A stretch of 64,000 nt of DNA from a virus, in the IMG/VR virus record IMGVR_UViG_3300029552_000001; one strand, 5' to 3'. Under the pieces are notes generated by a model. The model saw only the letters and a list, made by a program, of their open reading frames with translations. It made no database searches and was not told where the DNA came from. Shown one piece after another: positions 3,808-59,196 of this stretch (position 1 is the stretch's first letter; each line of letters starts with the position of its first letter). A program made the translations under genes and the position numbers.

Positions 3808-4506
3808 CTAAATCGACATTTTCAATCTTCTACCTAATTCTTTTTTTATATCCGATATCCTTTCGATATCCATCTTAACATCGCCCGTGATGGCGTATTC
3901 CTTATCCATTCTCTTGGGGGGATCCGGAAGCCGGCTTATGGCGAACAACCATGCCAGCTCCTTGTTCTTGTTCTCCCTAAGATACAAGTCAGACGTCATG
4001 CCATACATTTTTATGATCGTATCGAATAACGTTGATTCCGATAAACTCATATGCACGCTATACACATTTGATGGTTTCCAGATCAAGTTATCCAATCTCA
4101 TCGTATACTCACGTTTAAGATCTATGTGGGATATTACGGCCCTTACTATAGGTTCTTCCTTGAAGTTGGTGTTAGCCACAAACCAGATAAGCCTTTTTTC
4201 CACCTCCTTGATAGCTCCTGTATCCTTACCCGTATCGTTATATACCCCAACGATACGGTCCCGGATCCCCTCGACCTCCGGTGTCAGACCGGGTGTCTCT
4301 ATCAGCATCAGCAGCGATCCTCCCCTTGGCGTTATCTTCCACTTCCCATTCTTCTGAAGCTCAATATAACCAGATGCTTTATAACTATCTATTTTCTCCT
4401 TTGGAATGGTGTTAGCCATCTCTTCTTTTTGCCGGATCATCAAAAGATATCCAACATCAGACATCGTTAATCCTGATGTCATCATCTGTTCAAAATTTAT
4501 ATACAT
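3808..4506 (-). CDS. hypothetical protein (232 aa)
   Basis: ORF track. Sits in the replication module. No motif recognised. Confidence 0.6.
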   Translation of the reverse strand: MYINFEQMMTSGLTMSDVGYLLMIRQKEEMANTIPKEKIDSYKASGYIELQKNGKWKITPRGGSLLMLIETPGLTPEVEGIRDRIVGVYNDTGKDTGAIKEVEKRLIWFVANTNFKEEPIVRAVISHIDLKREYTMRLDNLIWKPSNVYSVHMSLSESTLFDTIIKMYGMTSDLYLRENKNKELAWLFAISRLPDPPKRMDKEYAITGDVKMDIERISDIKKELGRRLKMSI

Positions 4507-40815: not shown

Positions 40816-40835
40816 ATGTTTAAGAAAACACCATG

Positions 40836-40907
40836 TACCCCAATCCGGAATCGAACCGAAATTTCATCGTTAGGACCGACGTGTTCTATCCATTGAACTA
40901 TTAGGGC
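40836..40907 (-). tRNA. tRNA-Arg (anticodon CCU), 72 nt, no encoded CCA
   Basis: Hand-folded cloverleaf: GCCCUAA-UA-GUUC(AAUGGAUA)GAAC-A-CGUCG(GUCCUAA)CGAUG-AAAU-UUCGG(UUCGAUU)CCGGA-UUGGGGU-A. The D-loop has GG and the T-loop is UUCGAUU. G32 is unusual. Confidence 0.7.
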
Positions 40908-47835: not shown

Positions 47836-48822
47836 TTACAAATTCAATTTAGTTCTTAACTCTTGACACAATTCTTGATTATCTCTCATGATAATTAACG
47901 TATTATCCACCCCATTCCCTACCCGGACATCCCCGTACCAGTACCATGATCCCTTACGGGTAAAGATACCTGTTTCCTCGCATAACTTCAAAAGTTCAAG
48001 TTCCTTGTCAAACCCAACTCCATAATATAAGGCTGTCTCGGCTATCTGGAACGGTACGGCGGTCTTATTCTTCAGCACCTTTATCCTGACCTCATGACCT
48101 ACTGAAGATCCGTCCTCACCTAATATAACCTTCTTTCTCGCCATCTCCATACGGATAGAGGCATAGAACTTAAGAGCGTTACCTCCGGTCGTTACCTTAG
48201 GATCTCCGTATATAACACCGATCTTCTCCCGATACTGATTGATGAATACCAGAACACAGTCGCTTTTGTTTACGATCCCTGTAAGAACTCTCATAGCCTT
48301 TGACATCAATCGAGCTTGCAATCCCATGTTACTATCCTCCATATCACCCTCGATCTCCTTCTTCGGGACTAGATTTGCCACGGAATCCACGACAATAAAT
48401 CCTACCCTGCCGGACTCCACCAGCTTAGCCGTGATGTCAATAGCCAGCTCACCGTAGCTTGGCTGGGAGATCAAAAACCGGTTTATATCCAATCCCATTT
48501 TCCTAGCGTACTCAATATCAAAAGCGTTCTCCACGTCTATTATAGCTACCAGCTTATCGGGATGTTTTTTCTGGAACTCGATCATACTTAACGTACACAT
48601 CATGGTCTTGCCACAAGATTCCATGCCGACCAGCTCATGGATCCGGCCTACCGCCCATCCGCCGCCGAGGGCCTTGTCCACCACCAGCGAACCAGTGCTT
48701 TCCCTTGGTATGGATATTATAGGCTTATCATCGCCGAAGTTCATTATCGAGCCTTCTCCAAGCTCTTTATTTAAAGATGATACTAATTCATCTACGTCTG
48801 AAAAAAGTTCTTTCTTAGCCAT
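47836..48822 (-). CDS. recA: RecA-family recombinase
   Basis: GRIHELVGMESCGKTMMCTL is Walker A in RecA context. FIVVDSVANLVPK is Walker B and LVFINQYREKIG is the L2 region. Confidence 0.85.
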   Translation of the reverse strand: MAKKELFSDVDELVSSLNKELGEGSIMNFGDDKPIISIPRESTGSLVVDKALGGGWAVGRIHELVGMESCGKTMMCTLSMIEFQKKHPDKLVAIIDVENAFDIEYARKMGLDINRFLISQPSYGELAIDITAKLVESGRVGFIVVDSVANLVPKKEIEGDMEDSNMGLQARLMSKAMRVLTGIVNKSDCVLVFINQYREKIGVIYGDPKVTTGGNALKFYASIRMEMARKKVILGEDGSSVGHEVRIKVLKNKTAVPFQIAETALYYGVGFDKELELLKLCEETGIFTRKGSWYWYGDVRVGNGVDNTLIIMRDNQELCQELRTKLNL

Positions 48823-53067: not shown

Positions 53068-53766
53068 GTGCAAACAATTGGTAAAGCCCAAGTAATAGCC
53101 CAAGCTTGGGAAGACAGTTTATTGGGCAGGATTCCTAAGGATGAGAAGGATTATCCGGAGTGGTACAAGAATCGTCTTGATTTATGCAAGAAATGTCCTA
53201 AGAACTCTTCTAATATTTTTTTCTTTAAGTTACCAGCTAAGGTATTGCTGCAAAGATTGATGGGAAGACAGGCGTGCTCGTTGTGCGGTTGCTTTATCAA
53301 GGAAAAGGCTTGGATGAAGACAGAGGTATGCCCGTTAAAGTTCGTGGAGGGGGAGAAAGCCAAATGGAATGCTATGGAGGTCATAACCGCCGATCATAAC
53401 GATTTTAATATCGAGAGTCCTAATGATAATTTCGACGTGGGACTATCGGATGATGAAAGTGAGTTTTATATAAATCTTTTCGATCAGAAGATAGGAGATA
53501 AGATCGAGATCGTTCTGTTTATAACTCATAAGGATGGATTCCATGTTAAGGATAAACATTTTTCATGCGGATGTATAGGTGACGTATCATACAACAATCA
53601 TCCTGATAACGAGAATAGAACCATATTTCGTATGACGTTGGATACATCAAAATACCCGGAAGGTCATTTTGAGAAACATCTATCTCTTACCGGTTATGTG
53701 AAGGATGATCCTGAACGTAATTTCAAACATTTCCCGCTACGTATTATAGGGGAAGCTTATAAATAA
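53068..53766 (+). CDS. hypothetical Cys-cluster protein (232 aa, GTG start)
   Basis: CKKCPKNS..CSLCGC..VCP. Confidence 0.55.
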   Translation: MQTIGKAQVIAQAWEDSLLGRIPKDEKDYPEWYKNRLDLCKKCPKNSSNIFFFKLPAKVLLQRLMGRQACSLCGCFIKEKAWMKTEVCPLKFVEGEKAKWNAMEVITADHNDFNIESPNDNFDVGLSDDESEFYINLFDQKIGDKIEIVLFITHKDGFHVKDKHFSCGCIGDVSYNNHPDNENRTIFRMTLDTSKYPEGHFEKHLSLTGYVKDDPERNFKHFPLRIIGEAYK

Positions 53767-53770
53767 TGCT

Positions 53771-54019
53771 ATGAGAAATCTCGTAAGAAGCAAGATAGAT
53801 GACCGTATCCATGCCCTTATTGTCATGGAAGTCGGATGCCGTGAGTTACCTGAATATTCATTGGGTGATATACTTTACTCCGCTTTAAGGAGGATAGCTA
53901 GGGCTAATGGTGGTAATGTCCGCTTCTTGCGGGATGTTAGTACCAGGGATTTATTGAGGTCTATAGACCAAAGCATCAGTGATGAGATCGAATTAAATAA
54001 TAATGATTTTAACGTGTGA
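53771..54019 (+). CDS. hypothetical protein (82 aa)
   Basis: ORF track. Confidence 0.5.
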   Translation: MRNLVRSKIDDRIHALIVMEVGCRELPEYSLGDILYSALRRIARANGGNVRFLRDVSTRDLLRSIDQSISDEIELNNNDFNV

Positions 54020-54558
54020 TTATGATGGAAGAGGATAAGGATATCAAGAAAGAGATCAGGGATTATCTTAAAGAAGAGGCGGATACCCATATAAGGCATT
54101 GGATAGCCATAAAACGTGAGAGCAAGCGTCTGTATAGCGATATTGAGGATAGGACTAAGAAGATAGCCCTTAAATCATCTTCGTTGATAAAAGAGGAGGA
54201 TTTTGTCGTTCTTCATGAGATGACCCATAAGATACAGATGTTGAATATAGAGGCTGTAAAAGTCAATTCTAGGTTGATGTTCATAATCCAGTTGGCTACC
54301 AGCTTCGGTATGGATCTGGATTTAGATACGACATATGCGTCCACCGCCAAGAGCATTATAGAAGACAGAACGTCTGGATTCGTGTTTTATGATGATAAGG
54401 AACGTCTGAGATATGCTGACAAGGAGCTTGAGGATATGTTCCATGACATGAGCGTGACGGAAGTAAGTAAGATCGGGGTTGTTCAGTCTTATGAGCTTCT
54501 TATGAAACAGTATAACGAGTTTAAGGACATAATCAAAAATAATATTAATTCCATATAA
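54016..54558 (+). CDS. hypothetical protein (180 aa)
   Basis: ORF track. Confidence 0.55.
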   Translation: MIMMEEDKDIKKEIRDYLKEEADTHIRHWIAIKRESKRLYSDIEDRTKKIALKSSSLIKEEDFVVLHEMTHKIQMLNIEAVKVNSRLMFIIQLATSFGMDLDLDTTYASTAKSIIEDRTSGFVFYDDKERLRYADKELEDMFHDMSVTEVSKIGVVQSYELLMKQYNEFKDIIKNNINSI

Positions 54559-54569
54559 TTTCATTATAG

Positions 54570-54815
54570 GGTTTTAATATATCTATAAGGATCTGATTAT
54601 TAGCCTAAGTCTTGAAACAGAGGCTACGTTATTGGAGAATATATAGTTACCTACGGATGTTTATCCAAGTCTGTAGCTCTAAGGTAGGTGATTAAACAGG
54701 GATTGTATTTGGGTTTCGGTGTTGCCTGTACAAAACCTTCAATAACATTGGCGATGGGTACTAACAGGGTTTTTACCCTGACTTATGTTGAATAAACATT
54801 TTATTAAATTATTTA
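54570..54815 (+). ncRNA. candidate omega-RNA (HEARO-type guide RNA scaffold) of IscB
   Basis: Its position immediately 5' of iscB is as in known IscB loci. Stems seen: TAGCCT/AGGCTA, ACCTAC/GTAGGT, GGTTT/AAACC and CAGGGT-tttt-ACCCTG. The ends are not determined. Confidence 0.5.
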
Positions 54816-54821
54816 TTGTAA

Positions 54822-56042
54822 ATGGTTTATGTACAGGACATAGATGGTAAACCGATGATGCCTACGACAAGGCATGGTAAGGTTAGGAGGTTGCTTAAGG
54901 CAAATAAAGCAACCGTAGTGAATCTTTGTCCGTTTACGATTCAGTTAACTTACAAATCAACCGATCATAAACAGCCGGTTACTCTGGGCATTGATGCAGG
55001 AGCTAAACATATCGGTTTTTCTGCAACAACTGAAAAAGAAGAGTTATTTGCTTGTGAAACAATCTTAAGAACAGATATCGTAGATTTACTTTCAACGAGA
55101 TCTCAAAACAGAAGGACAAGAAGATCAAGGCTCAGATATAGGAAGCCTAAATTTAACAACAGAGTTTTCTCTAAAAAGAAAGGCTGGGTAGCCCCTTCTG
55201 TAAAACAAAGAATTGATTCCCATTTAAACGAAGTGAATGAAATTCATAAAATCCTTCCGATTACTAAAATAGTAATTGAGGCCGCTCAGTTCGATACTCA
55301 TAAAATGAAAAATCCTAATATTTCAGGAATTGATTATCAAAACGGAGAACAACTTGGATTTTGGAATGTCAGAGAGTACGTTTTGTTCAGAGACGGACAT
55401 AAATGTAGTTATTGTAAAGGGAAATCAAAAGATCTGATCCTGAATATTCATCATATCGAGTCTCGAAAAACAGGAGGTGATTCCCCTTCCAATCTCATTA
55501 CCTTGTGTGAAACTTGTCATAAGGAATATCACAAAGGCAATATTGATTTAAAGGTAAGGCGAGGCAAGTCGCTTTGCGGCGCAGCCATAATGGGAATCAT
55601 GAAATGAAGATTATACGATGAGTTGAAGTCAAGATATTCAAACGTTTCAATGACGTTCGGTTACATTACAAAATATAATCGGATTAAATACGGAATAGAA
55701 AAATCACATACATCCGATGCGTTTGTAATTTCTAAGAACTTCAATGCGAAACGAATTGAGTATCAATACTTGAAACGTTTAGTTCGTAGGCATAACAGGC
55801 AAATACATAAAATGAAAATTTTAAAAGGAGGGAAGAAGAAAAATAATCAAGCTCCTTTTGAGGTTTTCGGATTTAGATTGTTTGATAAAGTATTGTATAA
55901 CAATGAAATAAATTTTATTTATGGAAGAAGAAAATCGGGAAATTTCAATATCAGGGATTTCAATGGAGAAAATCCAAAGGATGTTTCATACAAAAAGCTT
56001 AAACTCATTAGAGGAAAGAGGCATCCGATTATATTAAAGTAA
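54822..56042 (+). CDS. iscB: IscB RNA-guided nuclease (RuvC + HNH), 406 codons with one in-frame TGA at 55605-55607 (track ORFs 54822..55607 and 55623..56042 share a frame)
   Basis: The PLMP-type N-terminus is GKPMMPTTRHGKVRRLL and RuvC-I is LGIDAGAKHIGFS. The Arg-rich bridge is RRTRRSRLRYRKP and RuvC-II is IVIEAAQFD. HNH is CSYCKG..IHHIESRKTGGDSPSNLITLCETCHKEYH and RuvC-III is SHTSDAF. The C-terminal segment is GFRLFDKV..GRRKSGNF. Confidence 0.85.
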
Positions 56043-56089
56043 ATAAATGTATATAAACATGTTTAATATATTTTTAAATATGAAAGCCA

Positions 56090-56410
56090 ATGCCACAGGG
56101 AAGACGAAAGCCGACGAGTAAGGACGTCGATCGGGTAAACGATAATCTTGAGGTCATATCCAAGGCCGTGGATGACGCCAAGACGTATATCGCCAAGCAT
56201 CCATGGGATAAGGAGAAGCCTGAGGATATGGCTAGGGCGTTCGATTTCATATCCAAGCTGATCGATAAGATCAACGTATGGAATGACTCGTATATGGAGA
56301 AGAGTGGAATCATGGATGTATACAGGAGTGTCAGCAATGTCCAGAAGAAGGAACGTAAGGGACAGGTTTCCGGTGGTATAGAATCCGTATTAAAAAATAT
56401 GCGATCATGA
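56090..56410 (+). CDS. hypothetical protein; positional candidate for small terminase subunit
   Basis: 106 aa with a basic N-terminus. Its stop overlaps the TerL ATG (ATGA). Confidence 0.5.
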   Translation: MPQGRRKPTSKDVDRVNDNLEVISKAVDDAKTYIAKHPWDKEKPEDMARAFDFISKLIDKINVWNDSYMEKSGIMDVYRSVSNVQKKERKGQVSGGIESVLKNMRS

Positions 56411-59196
56411 GTTTAAGCACGAGTCCAGAATTTTATGTAAACATGAAGAATCCCCCTATATGGAACGATCTGTTCGGATGGGAGGATCAGGATGATGATG
56501 TTAAGCAGTTCTTCACGGAGGAGGCTTATAAGGTCAAGAACGGGGTGACTATCAACGGTACGTTCATCCCGCCATGGCTTTATTGGCATGTTAATTTCTT
56601 TCCCGTATTTCAAGACCTTCCAAATGGAGAGCGTGTTCCGGCTATCAGCCGGTTACGTGATAATGAATGGTTTTTCGCCGAGATGTACCAACGTGCCCGT
56701 CAGGAGAAGAAAGGGCTGGGGATGTTCGGTACCCGTCGTTTTGGGAAGGCCCTTCTGGACTCGGAGCTGATATATACTCCTTATGGACCTAAGAAGATAG
56801 GGTTCGCTGATATCGGTGATATCATATATGGCGATGATGGTAAGCTTACGACTGTAGTAGGCGTATATCCTCAAGGGTTCGTTGATATGTATAAGGTTAC
56901 GTTTGAGGACGGGCGCAGTATAGTATGTTGCGGTCAACATCAGTGGAAGGTTAAATATCATGGTGATTATAAAGTCATGAGCACTATGGGTATCATCCAC
57001 TCTGACTTCCAGAAGATGACTATAGACATAGGGGAGGCCGTGGATTTCCCCGAGCGGCGGTGGCTGATGTCGCCCCAGCTCCTTGGGTCTCTGACCGCCT
57101 CTTTCCTTTGTGGATCTACCGACAGGATCTTCGAGTTAAGCAATAAGGAGATGGATGATATTATTTATTCATCCAAAAAACAGAAGGAGTTGTTTATAAG
57201 CTCATTCATGAAGATATCTTGCGGTATAAGTACCGGTGATGATTGTTTTAAGGTCGTTTACAAAAGTGAGTATATTATATCCTTCGTAAGAAGAATATTC
57301 TGGTCTATGGGATATTATTGCGTCATGGATGGTGATGATATGTATATATCCAAGACTCATAACAGGCTTAGGATATCCGATATAGATTATTACGGGAAGT
57401 ATAAGGCTACTTGTATTGAGGTCGATAATAAGTCCCATCAGTTCCTTGCCACTAATTTTGTCGTATCCCATAATACGACTATCATGTCATCACTTCTCCA
57501 GATGAACGCTACCATGACGATCGGGCTTAGTCATTCCGTGGTAGGTTTCAGCGATAGCGATTTATCTAATATAGGTGAGTATTGTGAGTATGGTCTTGAT
57601 CATGTGCATCCTTTTTTCAGGATTAACAGGACCAAGACCGATTGGAGTTCTGGTGTCACCTTAGGCAAGCGTATGTCCAACGGGGTTCGTGATGTTCATG
57701 CCATAATATCCATAGCCAACATCAACATGGGTAGGAAGACATCCACACAGAAGACTGCCGGTCTGACCCCCGCCACGGCTATTTTCGACGAGGTAGGTAA
57801 GGGACCTATCAAGAAGCCGTACACTGCCGCCATGCCGTCATACGACACTCCTTACGGCTGGCGTCTCAGTCCGATCTTGGCTGGTACCGGTGGTGAGGTG
57901 GAACTATCCAAGGACGCTCAGGAGATGTTCTCTGATCCTGATACATACAATCTTCTGGTCATGGACTGGGATATTTTAAATCGGAGAGCCATGAAAGGGA
58001 AAACATGGAAAGAACGGAAATGGGCGATGTTTGTTCCTGGTCAGATGGCTAACTCCGGTGTCAAGAGAACTATAGGTCTGGGTGATTATTTGGGGAAACC
58101 TGATGATAAGAAGCTTAATAAGATCAAGATTGACGCCACGGATTTCGAGGCTAGTACCAATAAGCTTAACGAGGAACGGAAGAAGCTATCTACGAAAGAT
58201 AGGGTAGCTTATACCTCTCATACCATGTTCTATCCATTTACGATTGACGACTGTTTTTTAAGCTCATCCCAGAACCTATTTCCGGTCGAGTACGCTATCA
58301 AGCATAAGAATGATCTTCTTGAGTCGGGGCAATATAGCGGCATGCTGTGTGATGTTTTCCTTGAATCGGGGAATAAACTTGGTACTACTAAATCGAATAA
58401 GCAATTGGCTGGTTTTCCGTTTAGCGGTGGTGTTATTGACGCTCCTGTCCAGATATTTGAGATGCCTCAATCCAATAGGTTTGATGACTTTATATATGTG
58501 AGTGGTAGCGACCCCTACAAACAGGCTAAGTCGGATACGCCCTCATTAGGTGCTTTTTATGTATTCAAGAGACGTGTTGGTATTCGAGATCCTTATGCCT
58601 ATAGAATAGTTGCCTCTTACGTATCTCGTCCATCATCCATAGATCAGTTTTGCCGTACGTGTGAGGTGCTTCAGAAGGGATATGGGGCTATATGTCTTAT
58701 GGAGAACGCTGACCAGATGTATGAGCAGTACCTCAACCGGAAGAGTGGTATGCCCGCTTCTTTCTTCCTGTTCGCTGGTGAGGCTATAGCCAATAAGTAC
58801 GTGAAGGCCGGCTCCCGGCAGAACAGCAAGCTGGGGCTATACCCTACCCCCGGCAACCAGAACCTGCTCTTCTCCTGCGTGGTGGATTACTGCTGGCAGG
58901 ATTTCGTTATCGGTTATGATGATCAGACTGGTCTTGATATAACTGTCAAGGGTATTGAGCTGATCGATGATATAGCCCTACTGGATGAGATAATACAGTA
59001 TAAGCCCGGATTGAACGTCGATAGGATAATAGCGTTCGGGCATGCGTTGGTTCTCGCCAGATATTTTGACGATAACAATTACATGCCTAAATCGAAGATC
59101 GAGGAGATGAATAATGCCCGCAAGGAAGACGCTTATAAACACCATGAGGTATATGCATCTGCATTTGGATCGGTATCTATAGGAGCTTTTAGGTAA
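56407..59196 (+). CDS. terL: terminase large subunit, interrupted by an intein (929-aa precursor, ~687-aa spliced)
   Basis: Removing residues 115-356 restores Walker A GTRRFGK|TTIMSS. Walker B-like AIFDEVGK and the nuclease region VSGSDPY are present. It is followed by the portal gene. Confidence 0.85.
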   Translation: MSLSTSPEFYVNMKNPPIWNDLFGWEDQDDDVKQFFTEEAYKVKNGVTINGTFIPPWLYWHVNFFPVFQDLPNGERVPAISRLRDNEWFFAEMYQRARQEKKGLGMFGTRRFGKALLDSELIYTPYGPKKIGFADIGDIIYGDDGKLTTVVGVYPQGFVDMYKVTFEDGRSIVCCGQHQWKVKYHGDYKVMSTMGIIHSDFQKMTIDIGEAVDFPERRWLMSPQLLGSLTASFLCGSTDRIFELSNKEMDDIIYSSKKQKELFISSFMKISCGISTGDDCFKVVYKSEYIISFVRRIFWSMGYYCVMDGDDMYISKTHNRLRISDIDYYGKYKATCIEVDNKSHQFLATNFVVSHNTTIMSSLLQMNATMTIGLSHSVVGFSDSDLSNIGEYCEYGLDHVHPFFRINRTKTDWSSGVTLGKRMSNGVRDVHAIISIANINMGRKTSTQKTAGLTPATAIFDEVGKGPIKKPYTAAMPSYDTPYGWRLSPILAGTGGEVELSKDAQEMFSDPDTYNLLVMDWDILNRRAMKGKTWKERKWAMFVPGQMANSGVKRTIGLGDYLGKPDDKKLNKIKIDATDFEASTNKLNEERKKLSTKDRVAYTSHTMFYPFTIDDCFLSSSQNLFPVEYAIKHKNDLLESGQYSGMLCDVFLESGNKLGTTKSNKQLAGFPFSGGVIDAPVQIFEMPQSNRFDDFIYVSGSDPYKQAKSDTPSLGAFYVFKRRVGIRDPYAYRIVASYVSRPSSIDQFCRTCEVLQKGYGAICLMENADQMYEQYLNRKSGMPASFFLFAGEAIANKYVKAGSRQNSKLGLYPTPGNQNLLFSCVVDYCWQDFVIGYDDQTGLDITVKGIELIDDIALLDEIIQYKPGLNVDRIIAFGHALVLARYFDDNNYMPKSKIEEMNNARKEDAYKHHEVYASAFGSVSIGAFR
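56749..57474 (+). mobile_element. intein (242 aa) in the TerL P-loop; Ala1, class-3-like
   Basis: Block A is ALLDSELIYTPYG and block B is CCGQHQW. Block F is KATCIEVDNKSHQF and block G is FVVSHN followed by +1 Thr. The A115 codon is 56749-56751 and the N356 codon is 57472-57474. Confidence 0.8.

Follow-up and report, generated by a model that had tools for sequence, protein, structure and literature searches.

The locus described here lies within a 64,000-nucleotide stretch of viral DNA (IMG/VR record IMGVR_UViG_3300029552_000001; hereafter the window), which derives from a ~150-kb human-gut phage. An inserted sequence of 1,551 bp (54529..56079, + strand) separates one of the phage's late genes from the terminase genes. 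This insertion, which is absent at the empty sites of relatives, is a non-autonomous OMEGA element of IS200/IS605 ancestry, carrying an omega-RNA and the gene for its RNA-guided nuclease IscB. Its G+C content is 33%, compared to 41-45% for the flanks. An initial annotation, made from the sequence alone, had placed a compact IscB and its candidate guide RNA upstream of the terminase genes, and this placement stands, with the gene for the large terminase protein (TerL) at 56407-59196 and a portal gene after it; the label "small terminase" given to a 106-residue open reading frame (ORF) reflects position only, as the product matched no family.

Relatives lacking the element provide exact empty sites, and these yield its ends as well as a predicted guide and target-adjacent motif (TAM). 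In GenBank MT839152.1 (L001), both flanks are 95-98% identical to the window and the element is not present; the exact empty junction recurs on over 110 contigs of IMG/VR. In L001, this empty site reads GAGTTTAAGGAC followed directly by ATGAAAGCC (junction GGAC/ATGAAAG), while the occupied site in the window reads GGAC, then the element from ATAATCAAAA to TTTTTAAAT (ATAATC...TAAAT), then ATGAAAGCC (ATGAAAG). Insertion is 3′ of a short AT-rich motif and without target-site duplication, the minus strand reading TTTCAT directly before the left end (LE) of the element. A two-base AT ambiguity at the left junction is settled by three separate comparisons: (i) similarity to a Vibrio olivae relative (L044) starts exactly at ATAATC (54529); (ii) the phage lineage has a second insertion site, where another flank is joined to the identical ATAATC; and (iii) in RNAfold predictions, 54529-ATAATCA pairs with 54593-TGATTAT, leaving the preceding 16 nt free. 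Since all three start there, the left boundary is 54529, inside the upstream ORF and ~36 nt to the left of the 54565 of the initial annotation; the element ends at 56079. An Rfam match beginning at 54544 had been a candidate for the 5′ end of the RNA scaffold, but was superseded by 54529 given these three comparisons together with the empty-site junction.

The upstream phage gene (54016..54558, +) is altered by the insertion, as seen when the window is set against the empty site in L001: its last 12 codons are swapped, such that ..EFKD-MKANATGKTKADE and a stop codon become ..EFKD-IIKNNINSI and a stop codon. This gene is co-oriented with iscB, an orientation that IscB elements typically share with their upstream gene; it supplies the guide and probably also a read-through transcript. 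A scan for sigma-70 promoters performed no better than on shuffled sequences, and a repeat search of 53500-57000 found neither a CRISPR array nor meaningful terminal repeats. A 16-nt direct repeat, TTTAATATAT(C/T)T(A/T)TAA (88% identical), occurs at 54573-54588 and 56062-56077; measured inwards, its copies are ~45 nt from the right end of the element and 2 nt from the left end, and chance in AT-rich DNA may account for it.

The omega-RNA scaffold and the spacer up to the iscB start (54529..54821, +) are defined by Rfam, folding and relatives. Within the 263 nt of non-coding DNA that precede iscB (54559-54821), for which the initial annotation gave ~260 nt and a guide-RNA role, and overlapping its 5′ side, the HEARO model (RF02033) matches 54544-54765 (+), scoring 92.0 bits (E=2e-17) where the gathering score is 83. 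The minimum-free-energy fold contains a P1 stem (54529-54535 with 54593-54599) as well as hairpins, including a terminal one at 54765-54780. The same RNA lies upstream of iscB in eight bacterial relatives, and the L044 copy displays compensatory changes (CUACGGA/UCUGUAG versus CAAGGAA/UUCCUUG), with the last pair of its P1 changed from A-U to U-G. The omega-RNAs of relatives score 96.6-102.2 bits, placing the window copy 4.6-10 bits below them. Five transitions are private to the window among 15 site-1 copies (54672, 54716, 54718, 54728 and 54731); three turn Watson-Crick pairs into G-U and one alters a conserved unpaired A. Across 9.2 kb, the window differs from its nearest relative, L007, at eight positions, of which seven are in the element (binomial p ~3e-5); its flanks are identical to those of L007 over ~8 kb. 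Gene conversion from the site-2 paralogue was considered as a source of the five private changes; only two of them (54728 and 54731) recur there, in the single site-2 allele L158. Separately, L002 contains a 67-bp exact copy of an omega-RNA segment (L002 3070-3136; window 54598-54664) ~570 bp upstream of its element, where an 82-residue gene is shortened to 78 residues.

Directly 5′ of the scaffold, in the last codons of the upstream gene, lies the predicted 16-nt guide TAACGAGTTTAAGGAC (54513..54528, +), and exactly these 16 nt are left unpaired by RNAfold. At the second phage site the flank differs while the scaffold is identical, and the 5′ flank in L044 differs too. Elsewhere in the window there is no further match to TAACGAGTTTAAGGAC with up to two mismatches. 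On the other side of the element, the predicted TAM is ATGAAA (56080..56085, +; TTTCAT on the - strand), which in empty sites follows the guide match. ATGAAA also lies 3′ of the elements in L044, L048, L049, L051 and L052, and ATGATA occupies this position at the second phage site, making six independent contexts. Both motifs fit NWRRNA, which has been reported as the TAM of OgeuIscB, and TTTCAT matches TTCAT, the AT-rich motif that Geobacillus TnpA and IscB share at the left end. This flank-derived guide and adjacent motif are predictions at the sequence level, consistent across the contexts sampled. Where the site is occupied, ATAATC instead of ATGAAA comes after the guide match; the element therefore parts its own target from the TAM. 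The next gene starts with the ATG of the TAM at the second phage site, and apparently also in L044 as read by eye, which places the element between co-directional genes.

Past the omega-RNA, an IscB-type ORF of 406 residues can be followed from 54822 to 56042 (+) if an internal stop is read through. The read-through protein gives significant matches to Pfam RRXRR (PF14239; E=1e-61; residues 2-175, all 174 profile positions) and HNH (PF01844; E=1.9e-9; residues 195-238), the latter lying between RuvC-II and RuvC-III with its HH and CxxC motifs present. The hallmarks reported initially are all there and in order: a PLMP-like N-terminus (GKPMMPT), RuvC-I (GIDAG), an Arg-rich bridge, RuvC-II (IEAAQF), the HNH domain, RuvC-III (SDAF) and a C-terminal region carrying GFRLFDKV..GRRKSGNF. 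Among PDB entries, OgeuIscB (7UTN/7XHT) matches with E=3.3e-45 and other IscB chains down to 2.6e-48; GKPMMPT, GIDAG, IEAAQF, HH and SDAF align with OgeuIscB. Identity as a CRISPR-Cas9 was rejected on account of the lack of a repeat array in 53500-57000, the size of 406 residues, and a match to the YnpsCas9 chain (1.4e-14) far weaker than to IscB.

What the initial annotation overlooked is that these hallmarks do not share one uninterrupted reading frame. At 55605..55607 (+), a single G-to-A change at 55607 converts TGG (Trp262) to an in-frame TGA, and the ORF listing holds two same-frame ORFs, 54822-55607 (261 residues) and 55623-56042 (139 residues). The 5′ part of iscB (54822..55607, +; 261 codons plus TGA) encodes the PLMP motif, RuvC-I, the bridge helix, RuvC-II and HNH; the 3′ part (55608..56042, +), in the same frame past the stop, encodes RuvC-III (SDAF) and the C-terminal TAM-interaction region. 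Except for codon 262, the read-through protein is that of the intact gene (P0001; 406 residues), which is present on at least 698 contigs; in all ten related loci (L002-L011), the frame is intact and codon 262 is TGG. Some gut phages recode stop codons, and the TGA sits exactly at a conserved Trp codon, such that its decoding as Trp, through recoding or suppression, would restore a full-length IscB. We nonetheless reject this explanation as very improbable, since TGA is an ordinary stop of this phage, ending 24 of the 74 long window ORFs (overlapping ATGA junctions included), and relatives have TGG; in addition, the only tRNA in the window is tRNA-Arg(CCT) (40835-40907, -), and many truncating alleles of other lengths exist in the same protein cluster. 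Sequencing error was likewise ruled out as the source of the TGA, as the identical W262* allele is found in IMG/VR contig L038 with a different omega-RNA haplotype, and the exact 261-residue product on 14 other contigs. Given that TGA is a normal stop here, that relatives have TGG, and that the same allele recurs, the window copy is a true null allele, lacking RuvC-III and the TAM-interaction region, and should yield no functional nuclease.

The window copy is thus a decaying allele of an otherwise conserved and widespread element. Other forms of decay are found alongside it: L155 has a frameshifted iscB, L039 carries at site 1 an internally deleted element of 878 bp between the same ends, and the iscB protein cluster holds many other truncated lengths. 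For IscB, the ratio of nonsynonymous to synonymous substitution rates (dN/dS) is 0.14-0.16 (versus the paralogue and versus L044), which indicates that IscB is under purifying selection. One allele, shared by L040 and L042, displays 24 codon changes from the consensus; by the codon table, nine of its ten amino-acid changes (L24S, L35P, K45E, Q51R, L205P, C229R, N240D, V245A and V321A) fit A-to-G or T-to-C, M12L being the exception. Many singleton variants among P0001-P0120 are likewise K-to-E, S-to-P or T-to-A, and this one-directional transition bias possibly reflects a mutational process or a sequencing artefact.

As first noted from the sequence, no TnpA is seen: none of the 97 window ORFs of at least 70 residues matches Y1_Tnp, a search covering the window and not the remaining ~90 kb of the phage or its host, and the surrounding 9-kb loci of ten relatives likewise held none. 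The 37-nt AT-rich LE (56043..56079, in transposase orientation) forms no stable hairpin, with a DNA fold of -1.7 kcal/mol that is no better than shuffles. This hairpin-less 37-nt left end is common to the phage element, its paralogue and L044, while in the Firmicute relatives L052, L049 and L048 this end carries a GC-rich hairpin of 8-9 bp that is conserved among them. Hairpins are present at the right end, where they coincide with the omega-RNA helices.

The second insertion site in the same lineage holds a ~91%-identical paralogue with an intact 406-residue IscB, found on nine IMG/VR contigs; the family has thus moved at least once within the phage lineage. In three genomes site 2 is occupied while site 1 is empty. 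The site-2 carriers L155, L156 and L158-L163 are IMG/VR contigs of 52-159 kb, outside the window, in which the left flank GTTAATAAGTTACTGGC adjoins ATAATC and the right junction joins TAAT to ATGATAAAAC, the latter at the start codon of the next gene. The predicted junction of an empty site-2 allele had no match in IMG/VR, and a 27-mer of the site-2 right flank occurs only in site-2 carriers and in contig L165. The first ~80 residues of the site-2 IscB are those of the site-1 protein, and the C-terminus in L161 matches site 1, which hints at gene conversion between the two paralogues.

The closest relative in GTDB, that of Vibrio olivae (L044), has only 79% protein identity, and those of gut bacteria are at 42-59%; no bacterial source or host is supported at these levels. 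In L044, a 15-17-nt copy of its own left flank (the predicted guide), TAACGCAAAAA(AA)GGAA, lies directly before ATGAAAG at the right end (2694-2708 and 4241-4257), with two extra A residues relative to the flank; this copy restores the AGGA ribosome-binding site of the downstream gene. We know of no IS200/IS605 step that yields a flank duplication of this type.

Site 1 is polymorphic across phages. A scan of IMG/VR with a 31-mer from the right flank returned 111 empty and 10 occupied sites among the matches listed (~121), i.e., an occupancy of ~10% of the sampled genomes; limited to the GGAC allele, scans gave 23 empty and nine occupied. The occupied genomes fall into at least six flank haplotype clusters, 4-12% apart, and empty genomes belong to the same clusters. 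The element has a mean pairwise divergence of 0.96% (its ORF 0.67%), compared to 5.7-9.3% in flanking genes, and elements up to 100% identical are found between phages whose adjacent genes differ by ~18%. L002 and L003 are identical over the 1,551 bp, but starting ~50 bp to the right of the element they differ at 18-20 positions per 100 bp. These comparisons indicate that the element moved horizontally between phages, and homologous recombination is implied as the route, since TnpA picks only a 4-5-nt motif whereas the same exact site is occupied in diverged backgrounds.

Two options put forward in the initial annotation can be weighed against this distribution. That of a selfish insertion is supported by presence or absence at one exact site, near-identity across diverged backgrounds, and recurring decayed alleles. 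That of a domesticated packaging cofactor, by which the HNH/RuvC enzyme would aid the terminase as HK97-type HNH proteins do, draws only on terminase adjacency and shared orientation, and we give it almost no credence. Such a role is contradicted by the absence of the element from ~90% of sampled relatives (111 of ~121 listed contigs with the same terminase flank) and by null alleles, with the nonsense allele present here and on 14 other contigs; in addition, a 91% paralogue occupies an unrelated second site, and the full omega-RNA and transposon-type junction are retained.

The target sequence itself varies among empty sites. The most frequent allele is TAACGAGTTTAAGGAT (n=70), followed by TAACGAGTTTAAGGAC, a perfect match to the guide (n=23), by TAACGAATTTAAGGAT (n=10), and by other variants (n=10). 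About 75% of empty sites have GAT rather than GAC at the TAM-proximal guide base, a difference that is synonymous (Asp). Occupied sites are mostly GAC, with GAT in L073 and AAAGAC in L071 and L096, and occupancy is associated with GAC (Fisher p=0.002). This association fits a reading of GAT as a resistance allele but is not proof of it, as tight linkage alone would give the same result.

Taken together, we favour the view that this is a selfish OMEGA element which probably spreads between co-infecting phages by RNA-guided homing, a mechanism that would apply to intact alleles. Read-through from the upstream gene would produce an omega-RNA that starts with 16 nt of phage flank (TAACGAGTTTAAGGAC). 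IscB loaded with this RNA would recognise TAACGAGTTTAAGGAC next to ATGAAA, a pairing found only in element-free genomes. During co-infection, an empty genome would thus be cut, and its repair by homologous recombination off an occupied genome would copy the element in; after any excision, cutting at that site would bring the element back as well. Among the window genes are those for RecA (47836-48822, -; Pfam E=3e-90), a PIF1/RecD-like helicase and a PD-(D/E)XK nuclease, and the phage's own RecA may provide the recombination capacity for such repair.

Several points weigh against homing. The 5′ end of the omega-RNA and the TAM are assigned from sequence alone, and the ten loci L002-L011 form a biased sample, having been retrieved by exact protein identity. 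Occupancy of ~10% among the matches listed is modest for an efficient drive, and with ~75% of empty sites carrying GAT, complete linkage of GAC to the insertion would explain the association without any drive. There is no co-conversion signal: a tract of low divergence in the left flank (54016-54530) was considered as one and dropped, since empty genomes are equally conserved there (1.3% between empty genomes). The window's own copy, being null, is incapable of the mechanism. Moreover, ordinary recombination could shift the element among phages without any nuclease.

This last possibility is the main rival to homing. Under it, the element arrived once via TnpA acting in trans and has since been shuffled passively by ordinary homologous recombination, with IscB at most restoring it post-excision and exerting no drive between phages. 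The flanking genes are highly mosaic in empty genomes too, the divergence among these being similar to that among occupied genomes, and low occupancy, the missing co-conversion gradient, and the recurrence of truncated, frameshifted and internally deleted alleles are all as such a passenger would have them. However, several independent pairs go from 0 to ~18% divergence over the ~50 bp next to each end, and because of these switches, passive shuffling would need many breakpoints exactly at the element. Likewise, the dN/dS of ~0.15 shows selection for nuclease function, and restoration after excision would require both TnpA and a left-end hairpin, neither of which was found (in the window and the ten 9-kb loci for the former; by folding for the latter). 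We hold passive carriage to be a serious yet rather unlikely alternative.

Alternatively, IscB could act as an inter-phage weapon, by which cutting of empty-site competitors near the terminase genes excludes them from the burst to the benefit of the carrier. The target is indeed conserved and immediately precedes packaging genes that are essential, intact alleles are frequent, and phage homing endonucleases are known to act by such marker exclusion, according to a review. Nevertheless, most related genomes are without the element, most empty sites mismatch the guide, and null alleles persist on full-length ~150-kb genomes. Both the weapon and homing would involve the same empty-site cleavage, so sequence data cannot tell them apart; overall, we regard exclusion of competitors as improbable.

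Returning to RNA-guided homing, a broader form of it may be put forward more tentatively, and with rather less confidence than homing itself: the element, with its degenerate left end, could constitute a natural TnpA-independent RNA-guided gene drive in a virus population, for which GAT would be a drive-resistance allele. The GAT or AAAGAC guides of L073, L071 and L096 would then represent a counter-move by the element.

As to the phage itself, its portal protein shares 48.5% identity with that of csAssE-Sib, a human-gut phage of 151 kb, and ~30% with Cellulophaga phage portals, the latter similarity suggesting a Bacteroidota host. IscB homologues of up to 51% identity are present in 36 GenBank phage records, where annotated ones are called HNH endonuclease, hypothetical protein or similar. 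A further phage protein matches the Tad3 anti-Thoeris family (E=3e-34; position among the window ORFs not assigned).

The packaging module of this lineage gathers several kinds of selfish elements. TerL contains an intein (window 56749-57474; TerL residues 115-356) that splits the Walker A motif (GTRRFGK, then ALLDSE...VVSHN, then TT) and has PDB matches to the gp41-1 and DnaB inteins (E=1.7e-9); the 929-residue TerL has no Pfam match, and PHROG terminase matches skip residues 186-400. In L003, L004 and L006 (gene from 5586; TerL product of 1,310 residues), there is a further insertion of 1,440 bp with Intein_splicing and LAGLIDADG_3 Pfam domains. L004 also encodes, at 1016-2203, a 395-residue TnpB (OrfB_IS605/Cas12f1-like_TNB) ~2 kb upstream of the IscB site, between genes of 146 and 232 residues, while a 431-residue ORF on the opposite strand near site 2 in L161 has an N-terminus that is TnpB-like by eye only. 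MT839152.1, which is marked "UNVERIFIED" and otherwise 97-99% identical, is without 91 bp and 78 bp of the TerL ORF (window 57747-57837 and 58341-58418); the first gap is not divisible by three, nor is the total, and the gaps may be due to misassembly or to a real variable segment.

Ultimately, the anatomy of this element is canonical for IscB and omega-RNA, and its value is that of a natural test case in a widespread human-gut phage, in which empty and occupied alleles are known exactly, a guide and TAM are defined by prediction, and putative resistance alleles, a range of decayed copies and a second, paralogous site are also on hand. It also provides a compact IscB of 406 residues with the predicted TAM ATGAAA. 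The naming of the intact protein as "NinG recombination protein" by one source and as hypothetical by another suggests that such elements are under-recognised in phage genomes.

Among characterised systems, the OgeuIscB-omega-RNA complex (PDB 7UTN, 7XHT) is alike in domain order, aligned catalytic motifs (E=3e-45) and an upstream HEARO-type omega-RNA with a 5′ guide, and the candidate TAM (ATGAAA/ATGATA) agrees with its NWRRNA. The phage IscB differs in having 406 rather than 496 residues, with this copy stopping at codon 262, in ~15 extra nt between P1 and the first hairpin of its omega-RNA, and in residing in a phage genome, where its activity is a prediction. The ISGst IscB elements of Geobacillus stearothermophilus (Meers et al. 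2023) similarly have TTCAT flanking the left end, no tnpA in cis, and co-orientation with the upstream gene; however, they keep TnpA-type end hairpins and are moved by a genomic TnpA, in contrast to the hairpin-less 37-nt left end of the phage element, for which no TnpA was seen. There, the nuclease restores the element on the sister chromosome, whereas the target here would be another phage genome.

In bacterial chromosomes, OMEGA nucleases are known to maintain transposons, and a 2026 review, which treats phage-to-phage OMEGA homing as theoretical, cites a TnpB-driven IS605 gene drive in multicopy plasmids; there, copying was TnpA-independent and nuclease-dependent ("non-restorative homing"; PMC11870625). 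That drive was experimental and used TnpB, while the case presented here concerns IscB in a natural phage population, as seen through comparative evidence. Parallels in behaviour are also offered by the homing endonuclease genes of phages, both free-standing and intron-borne (T4 Seg/Mob, I-TevI), with which the phage element shares presence or absence at a fixed site between conserved genes, an age much younger than that of the flanks, cycles of invasion and decay, and presumably spread in co-infection by double-strand-break repair. Unlike in these systems, the target would be read by a 16-nt RNA guide and a TAM instead of by protein contacts, with self distinguished from non-self because insertion of the element splits the target from its TAM.

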